A stretch of DNA of 11,597 nucleotides. Source: a virus. Its lineage: Duplodnaviria; Heunggongvirae; Uroviricota; Caudoviricetes. Below, in pieces: positions 1,075-11,122 of the stretch. A model generated the notes under the pieces. The model did no database searches. It was given only the letters and a program-made list of their open reading frames with translations, and had not been told where the DNA came from. The translations under genes were made by a program, and so were the position numbers. Within the stretch, counting starts at the first letter, position 1, and each line of letters starts with the position of its first letter. The stretch lies in IMG/VR virus record IMGVR_UViG_638341087_000009, positions 1 through 11,597 of that record; one strand, given 5' to 3'.

Positions 1075-1293
1075 TTAACGCGGGTATGTAATCATTCTGG
1101 CAATGCTTAATGCCGCTGCTTTTTCCAGATTGGTGATATCCTGCTCCAGAGCGGACAGATTTTCAGCCTGCTTAGCCCTGGCTTCATTAGCCCATTTCAG
1201 ATCCTGCGCTGCATTAATTTTCTGGCGCATCCACTCATAAAGTTCATCATCGGTATAGTCTGGCGAGATGATGACGGGTTCTCGTTTCTGCAT
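1075..1293 (-). CDS. Hypothetical small coiled-coil-like protein (72 aa)
   Basis: ORF with GAGGAA 5 nt upstream of ATG (complement of 1291-1293). Charged, helical-looking sequence; 22-nt gap to the next gene downstream. Confidence 0.55.
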   Translation of the reverse strand: MQKREPVIISPDYTDDELYEWMRQKINAAQDLKWANEARAKQAENLSALEQDITNLEKAAALSIARMITYPR

Positions 1294-1322: not shown

Positions 1323-1451
1323 TCAGCCGTTAGATTTTGCCGAGCTGGAAAGCGCCTGTTTAAACTCACTGAAGCTGAGAGCTTCTTCGCCTTCGGCAAG
1401 GCCTTCGAAGTATTCTTCGTAAGCCTTTTCCATGATTGTGTCGAAATCCAT
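1323..1451 (-). CDS. Small acidic protein (42 aa), not in the supplied ORF track
   Basis: Hand translation of the minus strand gives MDFDTIMEKAYEEYFEGLAEGEEALSFSEFKQALSSSAKSNG. AGGTGA lies 6 nt upstream; the start sits 1 nt after the stop of the upstream 80-aa gene. The two listed ORFs covering this interval (1247..1456 -, 1308..1505 +) look like frame shadows. Confidence 0.45.
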   Translation of the reverse strand: MDFDTIMEKAYEEYFEGLAEGEEALSFSEFKQALSSSAKSNG

Positions 1452-1452
1452 A

Positions 1453-1695
1453 TCACTCACCTGAGTTTCTTTCCAGCCAGCGACGGGCACCATTTTCGGT
1501 TTTAAACGTTTTGCTTTTGGTATACGTCATCGCGGTGAATGTGCCGTCCTGGTTGGGAAACACGCCGTACACCAGAGATTCATTGTTGCCAAGATCGATA
1601 GTATCCATGCTGACCTCATTTCCCCTTAACGCCGGGGTAGCGGAACTAAAAAACTGCTGCGCTGTTATATAAAGTGTTCCCGCCGTCATGTTCAT
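1453..1695 (-). CDS. Hypothetical protein (80 aa), first gene of the leftward early operon
   Basis: ORF with GAGGCG 4 nt upstream of ATG; sits about 85 nt downstream of the pL-like promoter. Not Arg-rich, so not obviously N-like. An internal Met would give a 50-aa product. Confidence 0.5.
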   Translation of the reverse strand: MNMTAGTLYITAQQFFSSATPALRGNEVSMDTIDLGNNESLVYGVFPNQDGTFTAMTYTKSKTFKTENGARRWLERNSGE

Positions 1696-1787: not shown

Positions 1788-1817
1788 ATCATAAAACACA
1801 TAAAATGTGTTAGTCAA
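1788..1817 (-). promoter_or_regulatory. pL-like sigma70 promoter for the leftward early operon
   Basis: Minus strand reads TTGACT (complement of 1812-1817), 18-bp spacer, TATGAT (complement of 1788-1793). Read directly from the sequence. Confidence 0.5.
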
Positions 1818-1831
1818 CACAAAAAAAGTGT
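1795..1831. promoter_or_regulatory. Two operator-like palindromes (ACACA-N5-TGTGT type) inside the pL-like promoter
   Basis: Site A 1795-1811 AACACA-TAAAA-TGTGTT, a perfect 17-bp palindrome in the promoter spacer. Site B 1817-1831 ACACA-AAAAA-AGTGT, overlapping the -35. Centres are 21 bp apart (two helical turns). The same motif recurs at 2849-2865. Confidence 0.5.
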
Positions 1832-1840
1832 GCGCAAGAA

Positions 1841-1872
1841 TAAAAAAACTCCCATTCAAGAGGTGATGGGAG
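1841..1872 (-). terminator. Intrinsic terminator ending the repressor/toxin-antitoxin transcript
   Basis: Stem 1849-1855 CTCCCAT / 1866-1872 ATGGGAG, followed on the minus strand by a 7-nt U tract (plus-strand A run 1842-1848). Immediately downstream of the ParE-like stop. Confidence 0.6.
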
Positions 1873-1883
1873 GTGGTTGATTA

Positions 1884-2171
1884 TTAACCGTTACCAGGAT
1901 ATTGCTGACGAGCATGTATCACGCTTACAATTTCAATGCTTGAAGTCGCTACCCTGTATAGGATTATGTAGTTAGGGTGGGTCACAATTTCTCTCAATCC
2001 AGAAACCCGTTCGCTTGGCGGGTATAGATACGGATGCTCAGATAGGGGCAGCACCGATGTTTCAATGCGTATTTTTAGTCTGCGCGCTGCCGGAGGGTTT
2101 TTTTTAGCAATGTAAGTTATAATCTGACTTAAATCATCGCGAGCAGACGGTAACCATAAAACGGGCAGCAT
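1884..2171 (-). CDS. parE: ParE/RelE-family type II toxin (95 aa)
   Basis: MLPVLWLPSARDDLSQIITYIAKKNPPAARR...YIILYRVATSSIEIVSVIHARQ fits the ParE pattern (L.W...A..DL..I..YIA...P.AA ... Y.I.YRV......I..V.HARQ). The start overlaps the upstream antitoxin stop (TAATG). The longer track ORF (136 aa) has an implausible Arg/Lys-rich N-terminal extension. Confidence 0.85.
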   Translation of the reverse strand: MLPVLWLPSARDDLSQIITYIAKKNPPAARRLKIRIETSVLPLSEHPYLYPPSERVSGLREIVTHPNYIILYRVATSSIEIVSVIHARQQYPGNG

Positions 2172-2362
2172 TACACGCTCCCGTTTTCCATGGCAATTTG
2201 ATTGATGATTTTTTCCATTTTTGCCATTACTTCGTCGTGCGGTATTGCTGGTCGTGGATCTGCAAGGCTTGCTGCAACCTTGGCGCGCAACCATTCGTTG
2301 TAACTGTTTTCTTGCTCGATAGTTTCAAATTCTGAAACTATTGGCGAAAGAACTGTGCTCAT
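2171..2362 (-). CDS. Cognate antitoxin (63 aa), ParD-like by context
   Basis: MSTVLSPIVSEFETIEQENSYNEWLRAKVAASLADPRPAIPHDEVMAKMEKIINQIAMENGSV. GAGAGG lies 7 nt upstream of the ATG; it is translationally coupled to parE. Assignment as antitoxin is strong; the exact family is less certain. Confidence 0.65.
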   Translation of the reverse strand: MSTVLSPIVSEFETIEQENSYNEWLRAKVAASLADPRPAIPHDEVMAKMEKIINQIAMENGSV

Positions 2363-2390
2363 AGTATGCCTCTCTGTCGTATGGTTGTAA

Positions 2391-2789
2391 TTATGCTCGA
2401 CGTCCTTTTTGGGCGGCGAGCCATCTTGCAACTGTGCGATCCATTGATTCTTTTTTGTCTTTCATGTCTTTAAGCATTTGTTCTTGCTCCTCTTCTGGGA
2501 AAGCCCCAAATGTTTGAAGCAAATCTCTCTGGCGCGGTCCTATTTTCATTGTATCAGGTACTACAACCTGTTCATCCTCGCTCGGAGGAAGCATGAACCA
2601 AAAAATAGGCCGAGCAGTTATTTGTGAAAGTCGATCTAAATTGTCAGGATTTGGACTAACCAAGCCTGCAGACCATCGCTGCACTGTTTGTTGCGACACT
2701 CCAACTAATTTCCCAAGCTCCGCCTGACTCCAGCCTGTTTCAGACAAGAGTTTCTTTATTCTATATGCAGTAATCTCGAGTGTTTTCAT
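2391..2789 (-). CDS. racR: Prophage repressor, RacR-like (XRE-family HTH), 132 aa from the proposed start
   Basis: HTH motif ...GWSQAELGKLVGVSQQTVQRWSAG... near the N-terminus. Start chosen at MKTLEIT (complement of 2787-2789); a TAGAAT -10 lies about 7 nt upstream, suggesting a near-leaderless mRNA like lambda cI from pRM. The alternative upstream start (2879) has no SD and would run through the operator region. Confidence 0.75.
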   Translation of the reverse strand: MKTLEITAYRIKKLLSETGWSQAELGKLVGVSQQTVQRWSAGLVSPNPDNLDRLSQITARPIFWFMLPPSEDEQVVVPDTMKIGPRQRDLLQTFGAFPEEEQEQMLKDMKDKKESMDRTVARWLAAQKGRRA

Positions 2790-2796
2790 AGTAACA

Positions 2797-2869
2797 ATTC
2801 TACTCAAAAAACGAGTAATGCGCGACACACGAAAATCGGGTTTACATATACACATTTTTTGTGTAATCT
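2797..2869. promoter_or_regulatory. Immunity switch region: divergent promoters and operator palindromes
   Basis: Leftward -10 TAGAAT (complement of 2797-2802) with a poor -35. Rightward TTTACA (2841-2846) with a -10-like TGTAAT/TAATCT (2862-2869). Palindrome TACACA-TTTTT-TGTGTA at 2849-2865 has the same half-sites as the pL operators. A second, different palindrome TACTC-N7-GAGTA sits at 2801-2817. Confidence 0.5.
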
Positions 2870-2895
2870 CCAGTCGCATGATGGAGGTACAAATA

Positions 2896-3168
2896 ATGAA
2901 TGATCATGTTAAGAAAAGGGTCGCGGGAAAATTTTCACAACGAGAACTGGCTATGTTAATGAGCACGAAACAACAAAGCGTATCTCGTTGGTTCAACTCT
3001 AAGTTCCCTGCATCAAGGGTGCTTCACTTGTGTCAATTGATGCAGTGGGAGGTTACTCCACACGAACTCCGACCAGACATTTACCCTAACCCAACCGACG
3101 GTTTACCCGTTGGATGTAAGGCTAACACATCAAATGCACCGGAGTTGATTCATGAAAATCAAGCATGA
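2896..3168 (+). CDS. ydaS: YdaS-like Cro/HTH protein (90 aa)
   Basis: GGAGG (2883-2887) 8 nt before ATG 2896. HTH-like ...FSQRELAMLMSTKQQSVSRW.... Divergent from the repressor, as in the Rac racR-ydaS-ydaT arrangement. The track ORF from 2818 is an upstream extension through the operator region. Confidence 0.7.
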   Translation: MNDHVKKRVAGKFSQRELAMLMSTKQQSVSRWFNSKFPASRVLHLCQLMQWEVTPHELRPDIYPNPTDGLPVGCKANTSNAPELIHENQA

Positions 3169-3577
3169 ACACATCCGCATGGCGATGAATGCCTGGGCGC
3201 ATCCGGACGGCGAGAAAGTACCGGCTGCGAAAATTACCAAAGCGTATTTCGAACTGGGTATGACGTTCCCGGAACTGTATGACGACAGCCATCCGGAAGC
3301 CCTGGCTCGCAATACCCAGAAAATTTTCCGCTGGGTAGAGAAAGACACTCCTGATGCGGTTAAAAAAATTCAGGCGTTGTTACCAGCTATCGAAAAAGCA
3401 ATGCCACCTCTGCTGGTGGCCCGAATGCGCAGCCATAGCTCAGCCTATTTTCGGGAACTGGTGGAGACGCGGGAACGACTGGTGAGAGACGCTGATGATT
3501 TTGTCGCAGTGGCGATCGCTGGTTTCAACCAGATGAATCGTGGTGGCCCTGCAGGAAATATTGTGGCTGTGCATTGA
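3152..3577 (+). CDS. ydaT: YdaT-like protein (141 aa)
   Basis: ATG 3152 with GGAG 7 nt upstream; overlaps the ydaS 3' end by 17 nt. Sequence MKIKHEHIRMAMNAWAHPDGEKVPAAKITKAYFELGMTF... and the synteny recall Rac prophage YdaT. Confidence 0.7.
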   Translation: MKIKHEHIRMAMNAWAHPDGEKVPAAKITKAYFELGMTFPELYDDSHPEALARNTQKIFRWVEKDTPDAVKKIQALLPAIEKAMPPLLVARMRSHSSAYFRELVETRERLVRDADDFVAVAIAGFNQMNRGGPAGNIVAVH

Positions 3578-3648
3578 CTCGCAATATTCATACCGGATCA
3601 CTTCCGGCAATTTGTGAGTAAAAAGATTCGGTATCAGAAGAGGTGAGT

Positions 3649-4686
3649 ATGGCTAACGCCTGGCTCAGATTATGGCATGACATGCCAAATGATCCTAAGT
3701 GGCGAACAATTTCCAGGGTGTCAGGACAGCCAATCGCAACAGTGATGGCTGTGTATATCCACCTTCTGGTGAGCGCGTCACGAAATGTCACGACATGTCA
3801 CGGCGTGTCACTACGTGGTCACATTGATGTCACGACGGAAGATTTAGCAAGTGCGCTTGATGTGACGGAAGACGTAATTGATTCAATTTTGCATGCAATG
3901 CAGGGGCGGGTTCTGGATGGTGACCTTATTTCCGGATGGGAAAAACGTCAGGTGCTGAAAGAGGACAATGGTAACGTTTCGCAAACGGCAAAATCCCCGG
4001 CAGAGCGCAAGAGAGCGCAGCGGGAGCGCGAAAAGCTGCGGAAATATGATGCTGATTGTCACGATGAGTCACGACGTGTCACGCATCTGTCACGACAAGT
4101 CACGACAGATAAAGATACAGATACAGAATTAAACCCCACACATAACGCGCGCATGCGCGAGAGTGCTCCAACCGGTGAGTCGAATGGTGCGTCGTTGCAG
4201 ACAGCCGAACCTGAATACCTGGACGGCCTGAGCGAACCGATCGGGAAATTTTCGATGACCACTGTCTGGCAGCCGTCGCCGGATTTTCGACAACGGGCAG
4301 CAGTGTGGGGTATGGCTCTGCCTGAGCCGGAATTTACACCTGCTGAGCTTGCCGCATTCCGGGATTACTGGATGGCGGAGGGGAAGGTTTTCACGCAGGT
4401 TCAGTGGGAGCAGAAATTTGCCCGCCACGTGCAGCACGTCAGGGCACAGGTAAAACCAGTCAGCAAGGGGGTAAGCCATGCAGCATCAGGTGGCACGGCA
4501 TCACGGGCAGTTCAGGAAATCCGGGCAGCACGCGAACAGTGGGAACGTGACAACGGATTTATCAGCAACGGAAACGGCCTGGAAGCTGTGGGAGCTTATG
4601 GGGGAGGTGTATTCGAACCGCTGGACACAGAAGAACGGGGCCGCACCTTCGAAGCTCTGGATTGCCCAGATTGGCGCGATGACTGA
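3649..4686 (+). CDS. Replication initiator (lambda O-like role); 3' boundary uncertain
   Basis: ATG 3649 with GAGGTG 4-9 nt upstream. The N-terminus MANAWLRLWHDMPNDPKWR looks like a phage replisome-organiser N-domain. The gene contains two iteron clusters in its low-complexity linker, as the lambda origin lies inside O. The last 209 nt overlap the P-like gene in another frame. Confidence 0.65.
   Translation: MANAWLRLWHDMPNDPKWRTISRVSGQPIATVMAVYIHLLVSASRNVTTCHGVSLRGHIDVTTEDLASALDVTEDVIDSILHAMQGRVLDGDLISGWEKRQVLKEDNGNVSQTAKSPAERKRAQREREKLRKYDADCHDESRRVTHLSRQVTTDKDTDTELNPTHNARMRESAPTGESNGASLQTAEPEYLDGLSEPIGKFSMTTVWQPSPDFRQRAAVWGMALPEPEFTPAELAAFRDYWMAEGKVFTQVQWEQKFARHVQHVRAQVKPVSKGVSHAASGGTASRAVQEIRAAREQWERDNGFISNGNGLEAVGAYGGGVFEPLDTEERGRTFEALDCPDWRDD
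3777..3834. repeat. Iteron cluster 1: six GTCAC(G) repeats at 10-11 bp spacing
   Basis: GTCACG at 3777, 3787, 3797 and 3829; GTCACT at 3807; GTCAC at 3818. Units resemble tGTCACGnnn. Confidence 0.75.
4058..4135. repeat. Iteron cluster 2 (five GTCACG repeats) with an adjacent AT-rich patch: candidate origin
   Basis: GTCACG at 4058, 4068, 4078, 4089 and 4099 (10-11 bp phasing), followed by AGATAAAGATACAGATACAGAATTAAACC (4107-4135). Confidence 0.7.
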
Positions 4687-5140
4687 ACAGCAAATCCGGC
4701 TGGTCTGCCGTCAGTGCATGGACCGCTGCCGGGCGGGTGAAACGTGGCCCCCGGACCTTGCTGAGTTTGTTGCACTGATTTCGGAGAGTGGGGCAAATCC
4801 ATTTGGTCTTACGGTGGATGCAGTGATGGAAGAGTACCGGCGCTGGCGCAATGAATCCTGGCGATACGACGGGAGTGATAAATACCCGTGGCCACAGCCT
4901 GTGCTGTACCACATCTGCCTCGAAATGCGTACCAGAGGGATTGAGCGCCAGATGACGCAGGGTGAGTTAAAACGACTTGCGGAACGGCAACTGACGAAAT
5001 GGGCAAAGCATGTTGGTAACGGGATGAGTGTTCCGCCAGTGCGACGACAACTGGAAGGGGCGAAACACCCGCAAGGGCCAACGCCAATTGAACGGCTGAA
5101 ACAGGAATACGAACGCCGGAAGGCAGCTGGTTTTATTTGA
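4478..5140 (+). CDS. Lambda P-like replication protein (DnaB helicase loader), 220 aa
   Basis: Segment ...DLAEFVALISE...MEEYRRWRNESWRYDGSDKYPWPQPVLYHICLEMRTRG...ELKRLAERQL... matches from memory lambda P (...FVAWCRE...YEYCRKRGLYPDAESYPWKSNAHYWLVTNLYQNMRANALTDAELRRKAADEL...). AAGGGGG (4465-4471) lies 6 nt before ATG 4478. Alternative in-frame starts are ATG 4598 and ATG 4679, the latter overlapping the O-like stop as ATGACTGA. Confidence 0.7.
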   Translation: MQHQVARHHGQFRKSGQHANSGNVTTDLSATETAWKLWELMGEVYSNRWTQKNGAAPSKLWIAQIGAMTEQQIRLVCRQCMDRCRAGETWPPDLAEFVALISESGANPFGLTVDAVMEEYRRWRNESWRYDGSDKYPWPQPVLYHICLEMRTRGIERQMTQGELKRLAERQLTKWAKHVGNGMSVPPVRRQLEGAKHPQGPTPIERLKQEYERRKAAGFI

Positions 5141-8386: not shown

Positions 8387-8440
8387 TGCTGCGGGCGCTT
8401 GAGGCTGTCTGCCTCGGGCATGCCACCGTAAGGCAGACAG

Positions 8441-8512
8441 AGAAAAGCCCCAGTTAACATTACGCGTCCGGCAAGACGCTTAACATTAATCTGAGGCCAT
8501 ATCTATGCTCTA
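8441..8512 (-). ncRNA. Candidate Sok-like antisense RNA (about 70 nt)
   Basis: Weak minus-strand promoter (TTGCCT, complement of 8543-8548; 17-bp spacer; TAACCT, complement of 8520-8525). Transcript would be antisense to the mok-frame SD and ATG (8493-8507). It would end in a minus-strand hairpin (arms 8491-8497 / 8447-8453, inner stem 8464-8468 / 8475-8479) followed by UUUUCU. Structure-based inference only. Confidence 0.3.
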
Positions 8513-8561
8513 CACACGTAGGTTAGCCTCTTACGTGCCGAAAGGCAAGGAGAAGCAGGCT

Positions 8562-8717
8562 ATGAAGCAGCAAAAGGCGATGCTAATCGCCCTGATCGTC
8601 ATCTGTTTAACCGTCATAGTGACGGCACTGGTAACGAGGAAAGACCTCTGCGAGGTACGAATCCGAACCGGCCAGACGGAGGTCGCTGTCTTCACAGCTT
8701 ACGAACCTGAGGAGTAA
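8562..8717 (+). CDS. hokD: Hok/Gef-family type I toxin (51 aa), closest to HokD/RelF; in-frame Mok-like extension from ATG 8505
   Basis: MKQQKAMLIALIVICLTVIVTALVTRKDLCEVRIRTGQTEVAVFTAYEPEE is the Hok family signature (transmembrane helix plus ...TRK.LCE..IR.G..EVAAF.AYE). AAGGAG (8547-8552) lies 9 nt before ATG 8562. The upstream in-frame ATG 8505 with its own GAGG gives a 70-aa form, as in chromosomal mok genes. Confidence 0.85.
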   Translation: MKQQKAMLIALIVICLTVIVTALVTRKDLCEVRIRTGQTEVAVFTAYEPEE

Positions 8718-9164: not shown

Positions 9165-10211
9165 GTGCGGGTATTACTTCGACCTGTTCTGGTACCGGAA
9201 CTCGGGCTGGTGATCGTTAAGCCGGGCCGTGAATCCATGCCGGTATTCCACAATACCCGGGTACTGGTGGAGCCGGAACCGAAAAGCATGCGTAATCTGC
9301 CGTCCGGGGTCGTTCCTGCCGTTCGCCAGCCGCTGGCGGAGGATAAATCATTACTGCCATTTTTCAGCGACGAACGAGTGATTCGTGCTGCTGGTGGCGC
9401 TGGCGCATTGTCTGACTGGCTGTTGCGCCATATTAAATCCTGCCAGTGGCCACACGGCGATTATCATCACAGCGAAACCGTCATTCACCGTTATGGTACC
9501 GGCGCAATGGTGTTGTGCTGGCACTGCGACAACCAGCTGCGCGACCAGACCTCCGAATCACTGGAACATCTGGCTCAACAAAACCTGGCAGCCTGGATGA
9601 TTGACGTCATACGCCATGCAATGAATGGCTCGCAGGAGCGTGAATTATCTCTGGCTGAATTATCCTGGTGGGCGGTCCGCAATCAGGTGGCGGACGCGCT
9701 ACCGGAAGCGGTATTACGTCGTTCGCTGGGGTTGCGTGCGGAAAAAATCCGCTCAATGTACCGTGAAAGCGACATCGTACCGGGAGAGCAGACCGCCACC
9801 AGCATACTGAAGCAGCGCACAAAAAATCTTGCGCCGCTGCCTCACGCTCACCAGCAAAAACCGCCACAGGAAAAGACGGTGGTCAGCATTGCCGTTGATC
9901 CTGAGTCTCCGGAATCTTTCATGAAACGACCTAAACGTCGCCGCTGGGTTAACGAGAAATACACGCACTGGGTGAAGACACAGCCGTGTGCGTGTTGTGG
10001 TAAGCCTGCTGACGATCCGCATCACCTGATTGGTCATGGTCAGGGGGGAATGGGGACAAAATCTCACGATATTTTCACGCTACCGCTGTGTCGGGAGCAT
10101 CACAACGAGCTTCATGCGGATCCGCTGGCGTTCGAAGAAAAGCATGGTTCTCAGGTTGATTTAATTTTTCGTTTTCTTGATCACGCCTTTGCAACTGGCG
10201 TGCTTGGGTAA
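9165..10211 (+). CDS. ydfU: YdfU-like DUF968 protein (348 aa) with a Cys/His metal-binding-like C-terminus
   Basis: GTG start 4 nt after GGAGG (9156-9160). C-terminal motif ...QPCACCGKPADDPHHLIGHGQGGMGTKSHDIFTLPLCREHHNELH.... Length is close to K-12 YdfU (about 349 aa, recalled from memory). Confidence 0.7.
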   Translation: MRVLLRPVLVPELGLVIVKPGRESMPVFHNTRVLVEPEPKSMRNLPSGVVPAVRQPLAEDKSLLPFFSDERVIRAAGGAGALSDWLLRHIKSCQWPHGDYHHSETVIHRYGTGAMVLCWHCDNQLRDQTSESLEHLAQQNLAAWMIDVIRHAMNGSQERELSLAELSWWAVRNQVADALPEAVLRRSLGLRAEKIRSMYRESDIVPGEQTATSILKQRTKNLAPLPHAHQQKPPQEKTVVSIAVDPESPESFMKRPKRRRWVNEKYTHWVKTQPCACCGKPADDPHHLIGHGQGGMGTKSHDIFTLPLCREHHNELHADPLAFEEKHGSQVDLIFRFLDHAFATGVLG

Positions 10212-10223
10212 AAGAGGTGACTG

Positions 10224-10583
10224 ATGCTCATAGATTTGGTTTTACCTTACCCGCCGACGGTGAACACTTACTGGCGACGCCGTGGCAGCACATATTTTGT
10301 ATCAAAAGCCGGGGAGCGTTATCGCCGGGCTGTGGCGCTTATTGTTCGCCAGCAGCGACTGAAATTAAGCCTGTCCGGACGGCTGGCAATAAAAATTATT
10401 GCAGAGCCACCGGATAAGCGTCGTCGTGACCTGGACAATATTCTGAAAGCACCGCTGGATGCGCTGACGCATGCGGGAGTGCTCATTGATGACGAGCAGT
10501 TTGATGAAATCAATATTGTACGTGGTCAGCCAGTATCTGGTGGACGGCTGGGTGTGAAGATTTACAAAATTGAGAGTGAGTGA
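10224..10583 (+). CDS. rusA: RusA-family Holliday junction resolvase (119 aa)
   Basis: ...LPYPPTVNTYWRRRG...PPDKRRRDLDNILKAPLDALTHAGVLIDDEQ...GGRLGVKIY... matches RusA motifs recalled from memory (PPSNNRYY..., PDRRRRDLDN..K...DALT.AG...DD, GGRL). GAGGTG lies 4 nt before the ATG. Confidence 0.85.
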   Translation: MLIDLVLPYPPTVNTYWRRRGSTYFVSKAGERYRRAVALIVRQQRLKLSLSGRLAIKIIAEPPDKRRRDLDNILKAPLDALTHAGVLIDDEQFDEINIVRGQPVSGGRLGVKIYKIESE

Positions 10584-10591
10584 GCGTAAAT

Positions 10592-11122
10592 ATGATATAT
10601 CCGGAAATTACAGGCAAAAGCGGCGAACATTTACGCCTGAACACGCTGGAAGCAGTCTGGATCCAGGGGAAATTACGGATGTGGGGGCGGTGGTCGTATA
10701 TCGGTGGGGGTAAATCCGGAAATATGTTTAACCGGTTACTGGTTTCGAAAAAGCTGACGAAAACAGCAGTTAATGAGGTTTTACGCAGCATGAAGAAATC
10801 CGGGCTGGAAAAACCGGAACTTGAGGCATTTTTTCGGGATATGACCAGAGGGAAGCAGAAGAGCTGGTTGTCACATTGTACAGACACAGAGGCGTTGATT
10901 ATTGATCGCGTTATCAGTGAGGTGCTTGGGGAATATCCCGGGCTAATCAATATTCTCCGGCAAAGGTACGAAGGACGGGGAATGAGTAAGAGAAAAATGG
11001 CAGAATGTTTAAATCGTACTCACCCGGAATGGTGTTTCAGCACATGTGAGAAACGTATTGCAGGTTGGTTAGCCGTGGCTGAACACATGCTTTATGTACC
11101 TATGCACGATTCATTTCGATAA
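10592..11122 (+). CDS. Q-like late-gene antiterminator (176 aa); assignment mainly positional
   Basis: Immediately follows rusA (start 8 nt after its stop) and precedes a short terminator-bounded region, as Q does in lambdoid phages. Sequence similarity to Q families is not verified. Confidence 0.5.
   Translation: MIYPEITGKSGEHLRLNTLEAVWIQGKLRMWGRWSYIGGGKSGNMFNRLLVSKKLTKTAVNEVLRSMKKSGLEKPELEAFFRDMTRGKQKSWLSHCTDTEALIIDRVISEVLGEYPGLINILRQRYEGRGMSKRKMAECLNRTHPEWCFSTCEKRIAGWLAVAEHMLYVPMHDSFR

Follow-up and report, generated by a model that had tools for sequence, protein, structure and literature searches.

The locus examined here is, judged by sequence comparison, an allele of the published three-gene paaR-paaA-parE operon of lambda-like E. 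coli prophages. It lies on the minus strand of the window, i.e. the whole stretch of 11,597 nucleotides that was analyzed. The locus probably represents a three-component type II toxin-antitoxin operon that is part of a lambdoid (Rac/Qin-like) immunity region and likely functions in addiction; the probability of this reading is put at about 0.8.

The system is known from E. coli O157:H7. As summarized in later papers (PMC4803016, PMC8630535), O157:H7 has two paralogous three-component systems, described by Hallez 2010, whose regulator PaaR is a protein distinct from the antitoxin. According to the same summaries PaaA1 fails to neutralize ParE2, and the reverse, and the summary in PMC4803016 adds that the PaaA-ParE complex partly represses the paaR promoter. 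In prophage CP-933P, paaR2-paaA2-parE2 forms one operon, PaaR2 is a CI analog, and YdaS and YdaT are analogs of Cro and CII (Jurėnas 2021; PMC8630535). 5′ RACE together with N-terminal sequencing showed the paaR2 mRNA to be leaderless. The operators bound by PaaR2 and YdaS are located in the intergenic region of 97 bp and at the promoter PL933P, which is beyond the pair; YdaT activates the PRE-type promoter PRE933P, and the locus is bistable. The paaA2-parE2 pair stabilizes an unstable plasmid and is addictive. PaaA2 neutralizes its cognate ParE2 and is protease-labile, with ClpXP/ClpAP as the degrading proteases; in neither transcriptional state of CP-933P was activity of ParE2 detected (all PMC8630535). 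The only effects reported for ParE2 are nucleoid localization and SOS induction (PMC8630535; SOS also PMC4803016). Structures of PaaA2-ParE2 are available (5CW7/5CZE/5CZF; Sterckx 2016). Prolič-Kalinšek 2023 (PMC9986795) defined the YdaT operator motif by footprinting and stated that paaA2-parE2 "replaces rexA and rexB" in CP-933P. The novelty implied by an earlier, sequence-only reading of this DNA is thus not sustained, as the architecture, the regulation and the analogy to rexAB are all in print for CP-933P.

Gene organization

The three genes follow each other on the minus strand.

2789..2391, minus strand: paaR-type repressor gene, 132 aa, stop codon TAA at 2393..2391 (ORF list)
2390..2363, minus strand: spacer of 28 bp, with a GAGAGG Shine-Dalgarno sequence 6 nt before the antitoxin ATG
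2362..2171, minus strand: paaA-type antitoxin gene, 63 aa (PDB, Pfam and NCBIfam matches)
2171..1884, minus strand: parE-type toxin gene, 95 aa, ParE1-like specificity class (PDB and Pfam matches)

The gap of exactly 28 bp at positions 2363–2390, on the same strand, is as the sequence-only reading had stated, and the stretch which that reading singled out (1841–2362) covers the terminator, toxin and antitoxin exactly. The stop codon of the antitoxin gene and the ATG of the toxin gene share one base (TAATG), an overlap that is the usual sign of translational coupling and that suggests coupling of toxin to antitoxin here. RefSeq annotation of an identical locus displays the same gene boundaries. 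RefSeq holds proteins identical to the repressor, antitoxin and toxin, where annotation is generic, and all three proteins are found identical in an independent genome. Longer open reading frames are present in the frames of the toxin (136 aa), antitoxin (86 aa) and repressor (162 aa). These were rejected because residue 1 of crystallized or annotated homologs coincides in the alignments with the starts at 2171, 2362 and 2789.

The 28-bp spacer is too short for a promoter and contains no more than the Shine-Dalgarno sequence. A promoter scan of the minus strand at positions 2363–2789, i.e. between the starts of paaR and the antitoxin gene, showed no sigma-70-like site. Because of this, the simplest reading is that one PRM (and PRE) transcript would comprise paaR, paaA and parE and end at the hairpin described below.

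The antitoxin and toxin

The 63 aa antitoxin has high similarity to PaaA2 of E. coli O157:H7 (PDB 3ZBE, 5CW7, 5CZE; E-value = 4e-23), and a pairwise comparison shows 80% identity to the solved PaaA2 over 50 aligned residues. It matches the Pfam family PF21217 (PaaA2) with 79.6 bits, where the cut-off is 27, and NCBIfam NF050103 with 93 bits. PaaA2 is the sole Pfam match at E ≤ 0.01, with no ribbon-helix-helix, ParD or other DNA-binding domain, and the protein is therefore taken to be without a ribbon-helix-helix. The toxin is similar to ParE2 (PDB 5CW7 chain B) over residues 1–92 with an E-value of 4e-37 and scores 63.8 bits with Pfam PF05016 (ParE_toxin), where the cut-off is 23. By these matches the pair belongs to the PaaA2 antitoxin family and the ParE toxin family. 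A ParE-family toxin had been recognized from the sequence alone, together with an antitoxin unlike a textbook ribbon-helix-helix ParD, and both points stand. What was taken there as a possibly atypical pairing is the already described PaaA family, of which absence of a DNA-binding domain is a defining trait.

Both open reading frames are intact and of full length relative to the crystallized proteins. In comparisons with relatives of the same specificity class, dN/dS is 0.13 for the antitoxin and 0.05–0.09 for the toxin at dS of 0.7–2.5. Both genes are under purifying selection. This selection, like the homology, the gene order and the sequence signals, is observed directly in the DNA.

Repressor and immunity region

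The 132 aa repressor displays an N-terminal HTH_3 domain (Pfam) and the conserved PaaR C-terminal domain; no peptidase domain was found in the domain search. Residues 8–128 align with positions 7–130 of the 135 positions of the DicA model NCBIfam NF007257, i.e. from end to end. The score is 58.6 bits, which is under the cut-off of 101, and by this measure the repressor is a relative of DicA and not a DicA ortholog. Against PDB sequences it gave only weak matches to the HTH regions of P22 C2 and HipB, and no PaaR structure was found; its membership in PaaR therefore rests on comparison with the E. coli loci described below. By domain content and alignment it is a PaaR/DicA-like CI analog. PADLOC matches of the repressor to RmrA and CapH were discarded, as they consist of generic HTH parts at the domain level only.

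A 106-bp intergenic region separates paaR from the divergent ydaS. The features predicted in and beyond this region, together with the corresponding operators on the other side of the toxin-antitoxin pair, are as follows.

2802..2797, minus strand: PRM-like −10 hexamer TAGAAT, 7 nt before the paaR ATG, no Shine-Dalgarno sequence
2801..2865, no strand: three OR-like, operator-like sites with 24-bp centre spacing (palindrome search)
2801–2817, no strand: OR-like site 1, TACTCAAAAAACGAGTA, predicted operator
2825–2841, no strand: OR-like site 2, degenerate, ACACACGAAAATCGGGT, predicted operator
2849–2865, no strand: OR-like site 3, TACACATTTTTTGTGTA, predicted operator in the spacer of the PR-like promoter
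2841..2869, plus strand: PR-like promoter TTTACA-17-TAATCT for ydaS-ydaT, putative, with a weak −10
2896..3168, plus strand: ydaS-like Cro analog, 90 aa (PF15943 YdaS, 40.6 bits; RefSeq annotation of an identical gene)
3145..3162, no strand: YdaT operator OM, TTGATT-N6-AATCAA, at the ydaS/ydaT junction, PRE-type control site
3152..3577, plus strand: ydaT-like CII analog, 141 aa (PF06254)
1795..1832, no strand: OL-like operators, two predicted 17-bp palindromes 21 bp apart
1795–1811, no strand: OL-like site AACACATAAAATGTGTT, in the PL spacer
1816–1832, no strand: OL-like site AACACAAAAAAAGTGTG, over the PL −35

The placement of TAGAAT and the absence of a Shine-Dalgarno sequence predict a leaderless paaR mRNA. 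The same −10/ATG arrangement without a Shine-Dalgarno sequence is found in two of the related loci (L003 and L005, below). The window (11.6 kb) contains just two exact copies of ACACA-N5-TGTGT. One is within the spacer of the PR-like promoter and the other within that of the PL-like promoter (1796–1810), with a second near-match located 21 bp from the latter. When up to two mismatches are permitted there are 12 occurrences where 4.9 are expected, a number reached by one of 200 shuffled sequences. The PL-type promoter downstream of the pair accordingly carries the same predicted operators as OR. TTGATT-N6-AATCAA has a single exact match in the window (0.04 expected by chance). The YdaT protein is 85%–92% identical to YdaT of CP-933P and of the CP-933M type. 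The divergent ydaS/ydaT genes, the leaderless-type PRM, the operators common to OR and OL and the exact YdaT operator together appear to reproduce the immunity region of CP-933P.

Predicted terminator and leftward promoter

Two further signals are located past the toxin gene.

1872..1842, minus strand: predicted intrinsic terminator, with a G+C-rich stem of 7 bp, a 10-nt loop and U7
1817..1788, minus strand: PL-like sigma-70 promoter TTGACT-18-TATGAT, 10 of 12 consensus matches

The hairpin begins 11 nt past the toxin stop codon. Its stem, CUCCCAU/AUGGGAG, is at 1872..1866 and 1855..1849 and is followed by the U run at 1848..1842. The pattern scanner missed this hairpin since its loop limit is 8 nt, and direct folding and comparison across loci were used instead. 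The folding energy relative to shuffled sequences (z = −1.6) is not significant alone. However, a hairpin is also present in each of the four divergent related loci L002–L005, always between the parE stop codon and the promoter that follows, but with a sequence of its own in each; a T-rich run comes after it in three of them. Because the position of the hairpin, though not its sequence, is conserved, there is good comparative support for it as the predicted terminator of the repressor-antitoxin-toxin transcript. The PL-like promoter reads leftward into small ydfA/B/C-like open reading frames and DicF, and a TTGAC-type promoter occupies the equivalent position in L002–L005. A terminator belonging to the pair, and its ending ahead of a pL-like promoter, had both been proposed from the sequence alone, and the comparison bears out the two.

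Related loci in E. coli

Five E. coli loci were compared with the window: L001 (strain TUM1881), L002, L003 (O157:H7 EC4115), L004 and L005 (ST131). The gene order is the same in all five and is combined with different immunity types. L005 represents the PaaR2 type, with a toxin identical to 5CW7_B and, as published, a regulator that begins with MQKKE and an intergenic region of 97 bp. The L005 DNA is 99.8% identical in prophage Sp12 of O157:H7 Sakai, where the regulator is annotated as 'phage repressor protein CI'. L003 is assigned by elimination to paaR1-paaA1-parE1 of CP-933M (copy 1), since strain 644-PT8 holds both O157:H7 copies at different sites. Amino acid identities of the window proteins to these two loci are given below.

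Regulator: 62% to L003 (copy 1), 37% to L005 (PaaR2 type)
Antitoxin: 76% to L003, 67% to L005
Toxin: 88% to L003, 70% to L005

The identity is unevenly distributed along the repressor. In relation to the HTH-type regulators of L002–L004, the C-terminal half is 64%–92% identical and the N-terminal half 52%–56%; in relation to PaaR2 the values are 48% and 26%. In the alignments, the C-terminal 19 residues of the antitoxin co-vary with toxin residues 8–38. This defines two specificity classes, with the window, L002 and L003 in one, and L004 and L005 in the other.

The nucleotide alignments show a similar pattern. Identity to L002, L003 and L005 is 32%–62% over the HTH half of paaR, the operators and the 5′ half of ydaS (approximately 2600–3050) and 36%–56% over the OL/terminator region (approximately 1800–1880). 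The toxin-antitoxin genes are 72%–92% identical to those of L002 and L003, and the 3′ half of paaR 58%–90%; L005 is lower throughout these genes (36%–88%). The start of the PL operon (92%–98%) and the 5′ two-thirds of ydaT (84%–100%, to approximately position 3400) are conserved in relation to the same three loci. By these alignments the similarity profile is a classic lambdoid immunity mosaic. A recombination joint is located inside paaR, with the HTH half variable and the C-terminal half and the toxin-antitoxin genes conserved.

L001, a prophage of the Rac type located at ttcA and carrying intR, xisR, recET and kilR, is 100% identical to the window from approximately position 1850 to 3150. 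Its repressor, antitoxin and toxin are 100% identical to those of the window, and the DNA of the locus is approximately 99% identical. Past approximately 3150 the window turns to a ydaT of the CP-933 type, with the switch located at the YdaT operator itself.

Distribution

Of the 5426 complete E. coli genomes searched, 842 (approximately 15%) have DNA homologs of the pair. The PaaR2-type operon is found in 633 of these 5426 genomes and the window allele, at 95% identity or more, in 12. Among 50,697 deposited phage genomes a relative is encoded in one, Escherichia phage Evi, where the toxin is unannotated. As this sole phage homolog is of the PaaR2 type, active phages offer little evidence on the PaaA-ParE family.

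A scan of contigs, one genome per species, gave 11 distant relatives with 34%–59% identity, from Betaproteobacteria and other metagenome-assembled genomes. A PaaA-like open reading frame is directly upstream in 10 of the 11, and no PaaR homolog was detected in their 2.5-kb flanks. The scan gave no new three-gene loci. Outside the enterobacteria the genes form a two-gene cassette in ordinary chromosomal contexts. This distribution is consistent with a published proposal in which a lambdoid immunity region acquired a two-gene cassette that then became dependent on the phage repressor.

Possible function

In the proposed mechanism, a leaderless PRM-type transcript would have the A of the paaR start codon as its first nucleotide and encode PaaR, the CI/DicA analog, which would bind the 17-bp ACACA-N5-TGTGT operators at OR and OL. 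Past the 28-bp spacer the transcript would continue through paaA, for an antitoxin that lacks a DNA-binding domain and is presumed labile, and through parE, coupled to paaA in translation, for a toxin presumed, like its homolog, to be nucleoid-associated and SOS-inducing and a member of the gyrase-poison family. Transcription would stop at the predicted intrinsic terminator just before PL. The pair would have no autoregulation of its own and would be made in the lysogenic state (from PRM) or during its establishment (from a YdaT-activated PRE). If the segment is lost or replaced, no new PaaA would be made, proteases would clear the existing PaaA and ParE would kill the cell. The most likely role, by analogy, is addiction that would stabilize both the immunity region and the prophage as a whole.

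That the genes are co-transcribed, that the antitoxin is labile, that the toxin is toxic and that the pair is addictive is taken over from experiments on homologs. Co-expression with the repressor and a stabilizing function, as suggested by the sequence-only reading, are documented for the homologous paaR2-paaA2-parE2 (an operon, and addictive; PMC8630535), and its rex-like placement of the pair matches the published equivalence with rexAB at CP-933P; both would extend to the window by analogy. Several observations stand against the mechanism: identity between the repressor and PaaR2 is only 37%, the operators differ from those of CP-933P, the folding energy of the hairpin is not significant alone (z = −1.6), and no ParE2 activity was seen in either state of CP-933P (PMC8630535). 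In addition, one toxin-antitoxin class occurs with three or more immunity specificities. It follows that recombination inside paaR does happen and that the pair does not prevent immunity swapping as such.

Other functions may be considered. Some type II toxin-antitoxin systems of other kinds defend against phages, and the pair occupies the rexAB slot, where it would be co-expressed with the repressor as rexAB is. In a rex-like process of abortive infection or superinfection exclusion, an infecting phage would shut off transcription of the host or the prophage, labile PaaA would decay and ParE would poison DNA topology. The protease lability of the homologous PaaA2 fits such a process, and the fact that no activation of ParE2 was found in normal growth leaves room for an external trigger (PMC8630535). 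However, neither antitoxin nor toxin matched any PADLOC defence model, the literature searched contained no report of phage defence by PaaA-ParE, the pair is not homologous to RexA or RexB, and the cassettes outside the enterobacteria, with their ordinary chromosomal contexts and no PaaR-type repressor in the 2.5-kb flanks, do not point to defence. A defence role is considered unlikely. A wider proposal is similarly doubtful. It holds that the pair is an abortive-infection or exclusion system expressed in the lysogen and triggered by shut-off of PRM or of host proteostasis, with the co-varying classes as the product of an arms race, or else that it polices replacement of the immunity region. 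If exclusion were its role, the two classes would reflect an arms race and not mere insulation of paralogs; if it polices heteroimmune recombinants, the joint inside paaR would be the footprint of survivors.

An autonomous two-gene pair that merely adjoins the repressor, with a promoter of its own in the 3′ part of paaR, autoregulated by PaaA-ParE and unrelated to lysogeny, is very improbable. Stand-alone two-gene cassettes do exist in other phyla, and PMC4803016 credits Hallez 2010 with the finding that the paaR promoter is partially repressed by PaaA-ParE. But the repression described in that summary acts at the paaR promoter and not at an internal one, the 28-bp gap has only a Shine-Dalgarno sequence, the scan from 2363 to 2789 gave no minus-strand sigma-70-like site, PaaA is without a DNA-binding domain (Pfam) and the homologous genes form one operon with paaR2 (PMC8630535). 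There is hardly any likelihood that the genes are a decaying, non-functional remnant in a cryptic prophage. The occurrence of the family in prophage regions of 842 of 5426 E. coli genomes and in one of 50,697 phage genomes would fit decay, as would the lack of steady-state ParE2 activity in CP-933P (PMC8630535). Against decay are the intact, full-length reading frames, the dN/dS of 0.05–0.13 at dS 0.7–2.5, the preserved start/stop overlap and Shine-Dalgarno sequence, and the identical proteins in an independent genome. Addiction continues to be the preferred reading.

As a discovery the locus has little value, given what has been published on CP-933P. Its value is comparative: one toxin-antitoxin cassette travels with several immunity specificities and in two co-varying classes, the family is carried by approximately 15% of complete E. 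coli genomes, and a repressor-free cassette is found outside the enterobacteria. What the family does (addiction, protecting the immunity region, or defence against phages) is at issue, and the window has no special bearing on it. The window allele is nevertheless a potential second, heteroimmune test case for the role of the pair.

Comparison with known systems

The Qin DicA-DicC/dicB region is related through the repressor, which matches the DicA model end to end (58.6 against a cut-off of 101), and through the ydfA/B/C-like open reading frames and DicF RNA that the window, like the dicB operon, has downstream of PL. Qin is not known to have a toxin-antitoxin pair between dicA and the promoter of the dicB operon.

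Canonical ParD-ParE systems (RK2, Caulobacter, Vibrio) have in common with the window the ParE fold and family (PF05016) and a small antitoxin encoded directly upstream. Unlike canonical ParD, which has a ribbon-helix-helix, the window antitoxin has none and would not autoregulate by itself; regulation appears to be handed to a separate phage repressor.

In lambda cI-rexA-rexB, as in the window, genes follow the repressor and end before PL; their co-transcription in the lysogen from PRM/PRE in lambda is predicted for the window as well. The gene products differ: rexAB encodes a sensor and an ion channel, whereas the window pair is a type II toxin-antitoxin. No homology of the pair to RexA or RexB was found, and the Pfam family matches are to PaaA2 and ParE only.

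CP-933P paaR2-paaA2-parE2 is alike in having OR and OL operators, a PL located after the pair and a leaderless-type PRM, the last being a prediction for the window. The YdaT operators of the two are identical; their YdaT proteins share 85% identity, and the N-terminal 45 residues of the antitoxin are nearly identical. However, the CP-933P operators are of the GTTTAGTAA type, unrelated to ACACA-N5-TGTGT of the window, and PaaR2 is 37% identical overall and 26% in the N-terminal DNA-binding half. The C-terminal tail of the antitoxin and the alpha-hairpin of the toxin are of the other specificity class. Cross-protection between the window allele and PaaA2-ParE2 is unlikely, because PaaA1 and ParE2 do not cross-neutralize.

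CP-933M paaR1-paaA1-parE1 displays the same three-gene order, the divergent ydaS/ydaT and the same slot between the repressor and a PL-type promoter. It is also of the same class, with the antitoxin C-tail VMAxMExxIxQIA and the toxin hairpin PSARDDL...AARRLKIRIET. Its repressor is only 62% identical, a value that falls to 52% over the HTH half. It also differs from the window in the sequence of the terminator hairpin, in the operators and in the N-terminus of YdaS. Because of the last two differences, the immunity specificity is predicted to differ from that of the CP-933M copy. What is particular to the window is a ParE1-like toxin-antitoxin allele joined to a distinct immunity specificity.

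Crossover at the ydaS/ydaT junction

Between about position 1850 and about position 3150, the window has 100% identity with L001, the Rac-type prophage locus of E. coli TUM1881. Past about 3150 the identity to this locus falls to 26–68% and the window sequence agrees instead with the O157:H7-type ydaT, at 94–100% identity. The crossover point, which is at the ydaS/ydaT junction, coincides with the YdaT operator. Across complete E. coli genomes, coverage of the whole window at any single place does not exceed 81%.

The E. coli RM9245 locus (L004) displays a tandem pair of paaR-type regulator genes at positions 3252–4264, upstream of a class-2 (ParE2-like specificity) paaA-parE. The 3′ end of a 153 aa PaaR1-like gene overlaps the paaA start, and a 123 aa PaaR2-like gene is found farther upstream. 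The locus resembles an intermediate in recombination between two types of immunity region.

Antitoxin N-terminus and distribution of the module

Residues 1–15 of the antitoxin (window 2362..2318), LSPIVSEFET.EQE, are strongly conserved, and this includes the distant Betaproteobacterial homologs. Over residues 1–55, the antitoxins of the distant paaA-parE cassettes (L007–L016) show 47–70% identity, a level of conservation no lower than that of the toxins (46–59%). One of the crystallised PaaA2 chains, 5CZF_A with 52 residues, begins at about residue 13; the residues before this position are therefore apparently dispensable for complex formation. Conservation of the N-terminal region hints that it may have another role, e.g. 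as a degron or in a regulatory contact.

Escherichia phage Evi (LR597642, positions 3001–3276) is the sole deposited phage genome, among 50,697, that contains a homolog. A PaaR2-type regulator and the antitoxin are present, and the ParE open reading frame is without annotation in the LR597642 record.

A candidate type I toxin-antitoxin locus, the second toxin-antitoxin locus in the window and unrelated to paaA-parE, is at positions 8393–8717 (+):
8393–8567, +, sok antisense RNA (RF01794, 114 bits)
8505–8717, +, 70 aa open reading frame overlapping the sok RNA in the same orientation, a putative Hok toxin gene

PL-like operon and remainder of the window

The PL-like promoter (1817..1788) is followed by these features:
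1695..1453, small open reading frame, phrog_751, function unknown
1493..1323, small open reading frame, phrog_2061, function unknown
1293..1075, small open reading frame, phrog_1744, function unknown
92–143, −, DicF antisense sRNA (Rfam RF00039, 75 bits; gathering score, 48)

Given the RF00039 match, the PL-like promoter heads a Qin-type operon that runs through ydfA/B/C-like genes to DicF, and would continue to dicB past the window edge.

Other features of the window are:
3643–4686, +, O-like replication initiator
4478–5140, +, P-like helicase loader
9165–10211, +, DUF968/HNH protein
10580–11122, +, Q-like antiterminator

With these genes, the remainder of the window has the standard make-up of a lambdoid early/late-control region.
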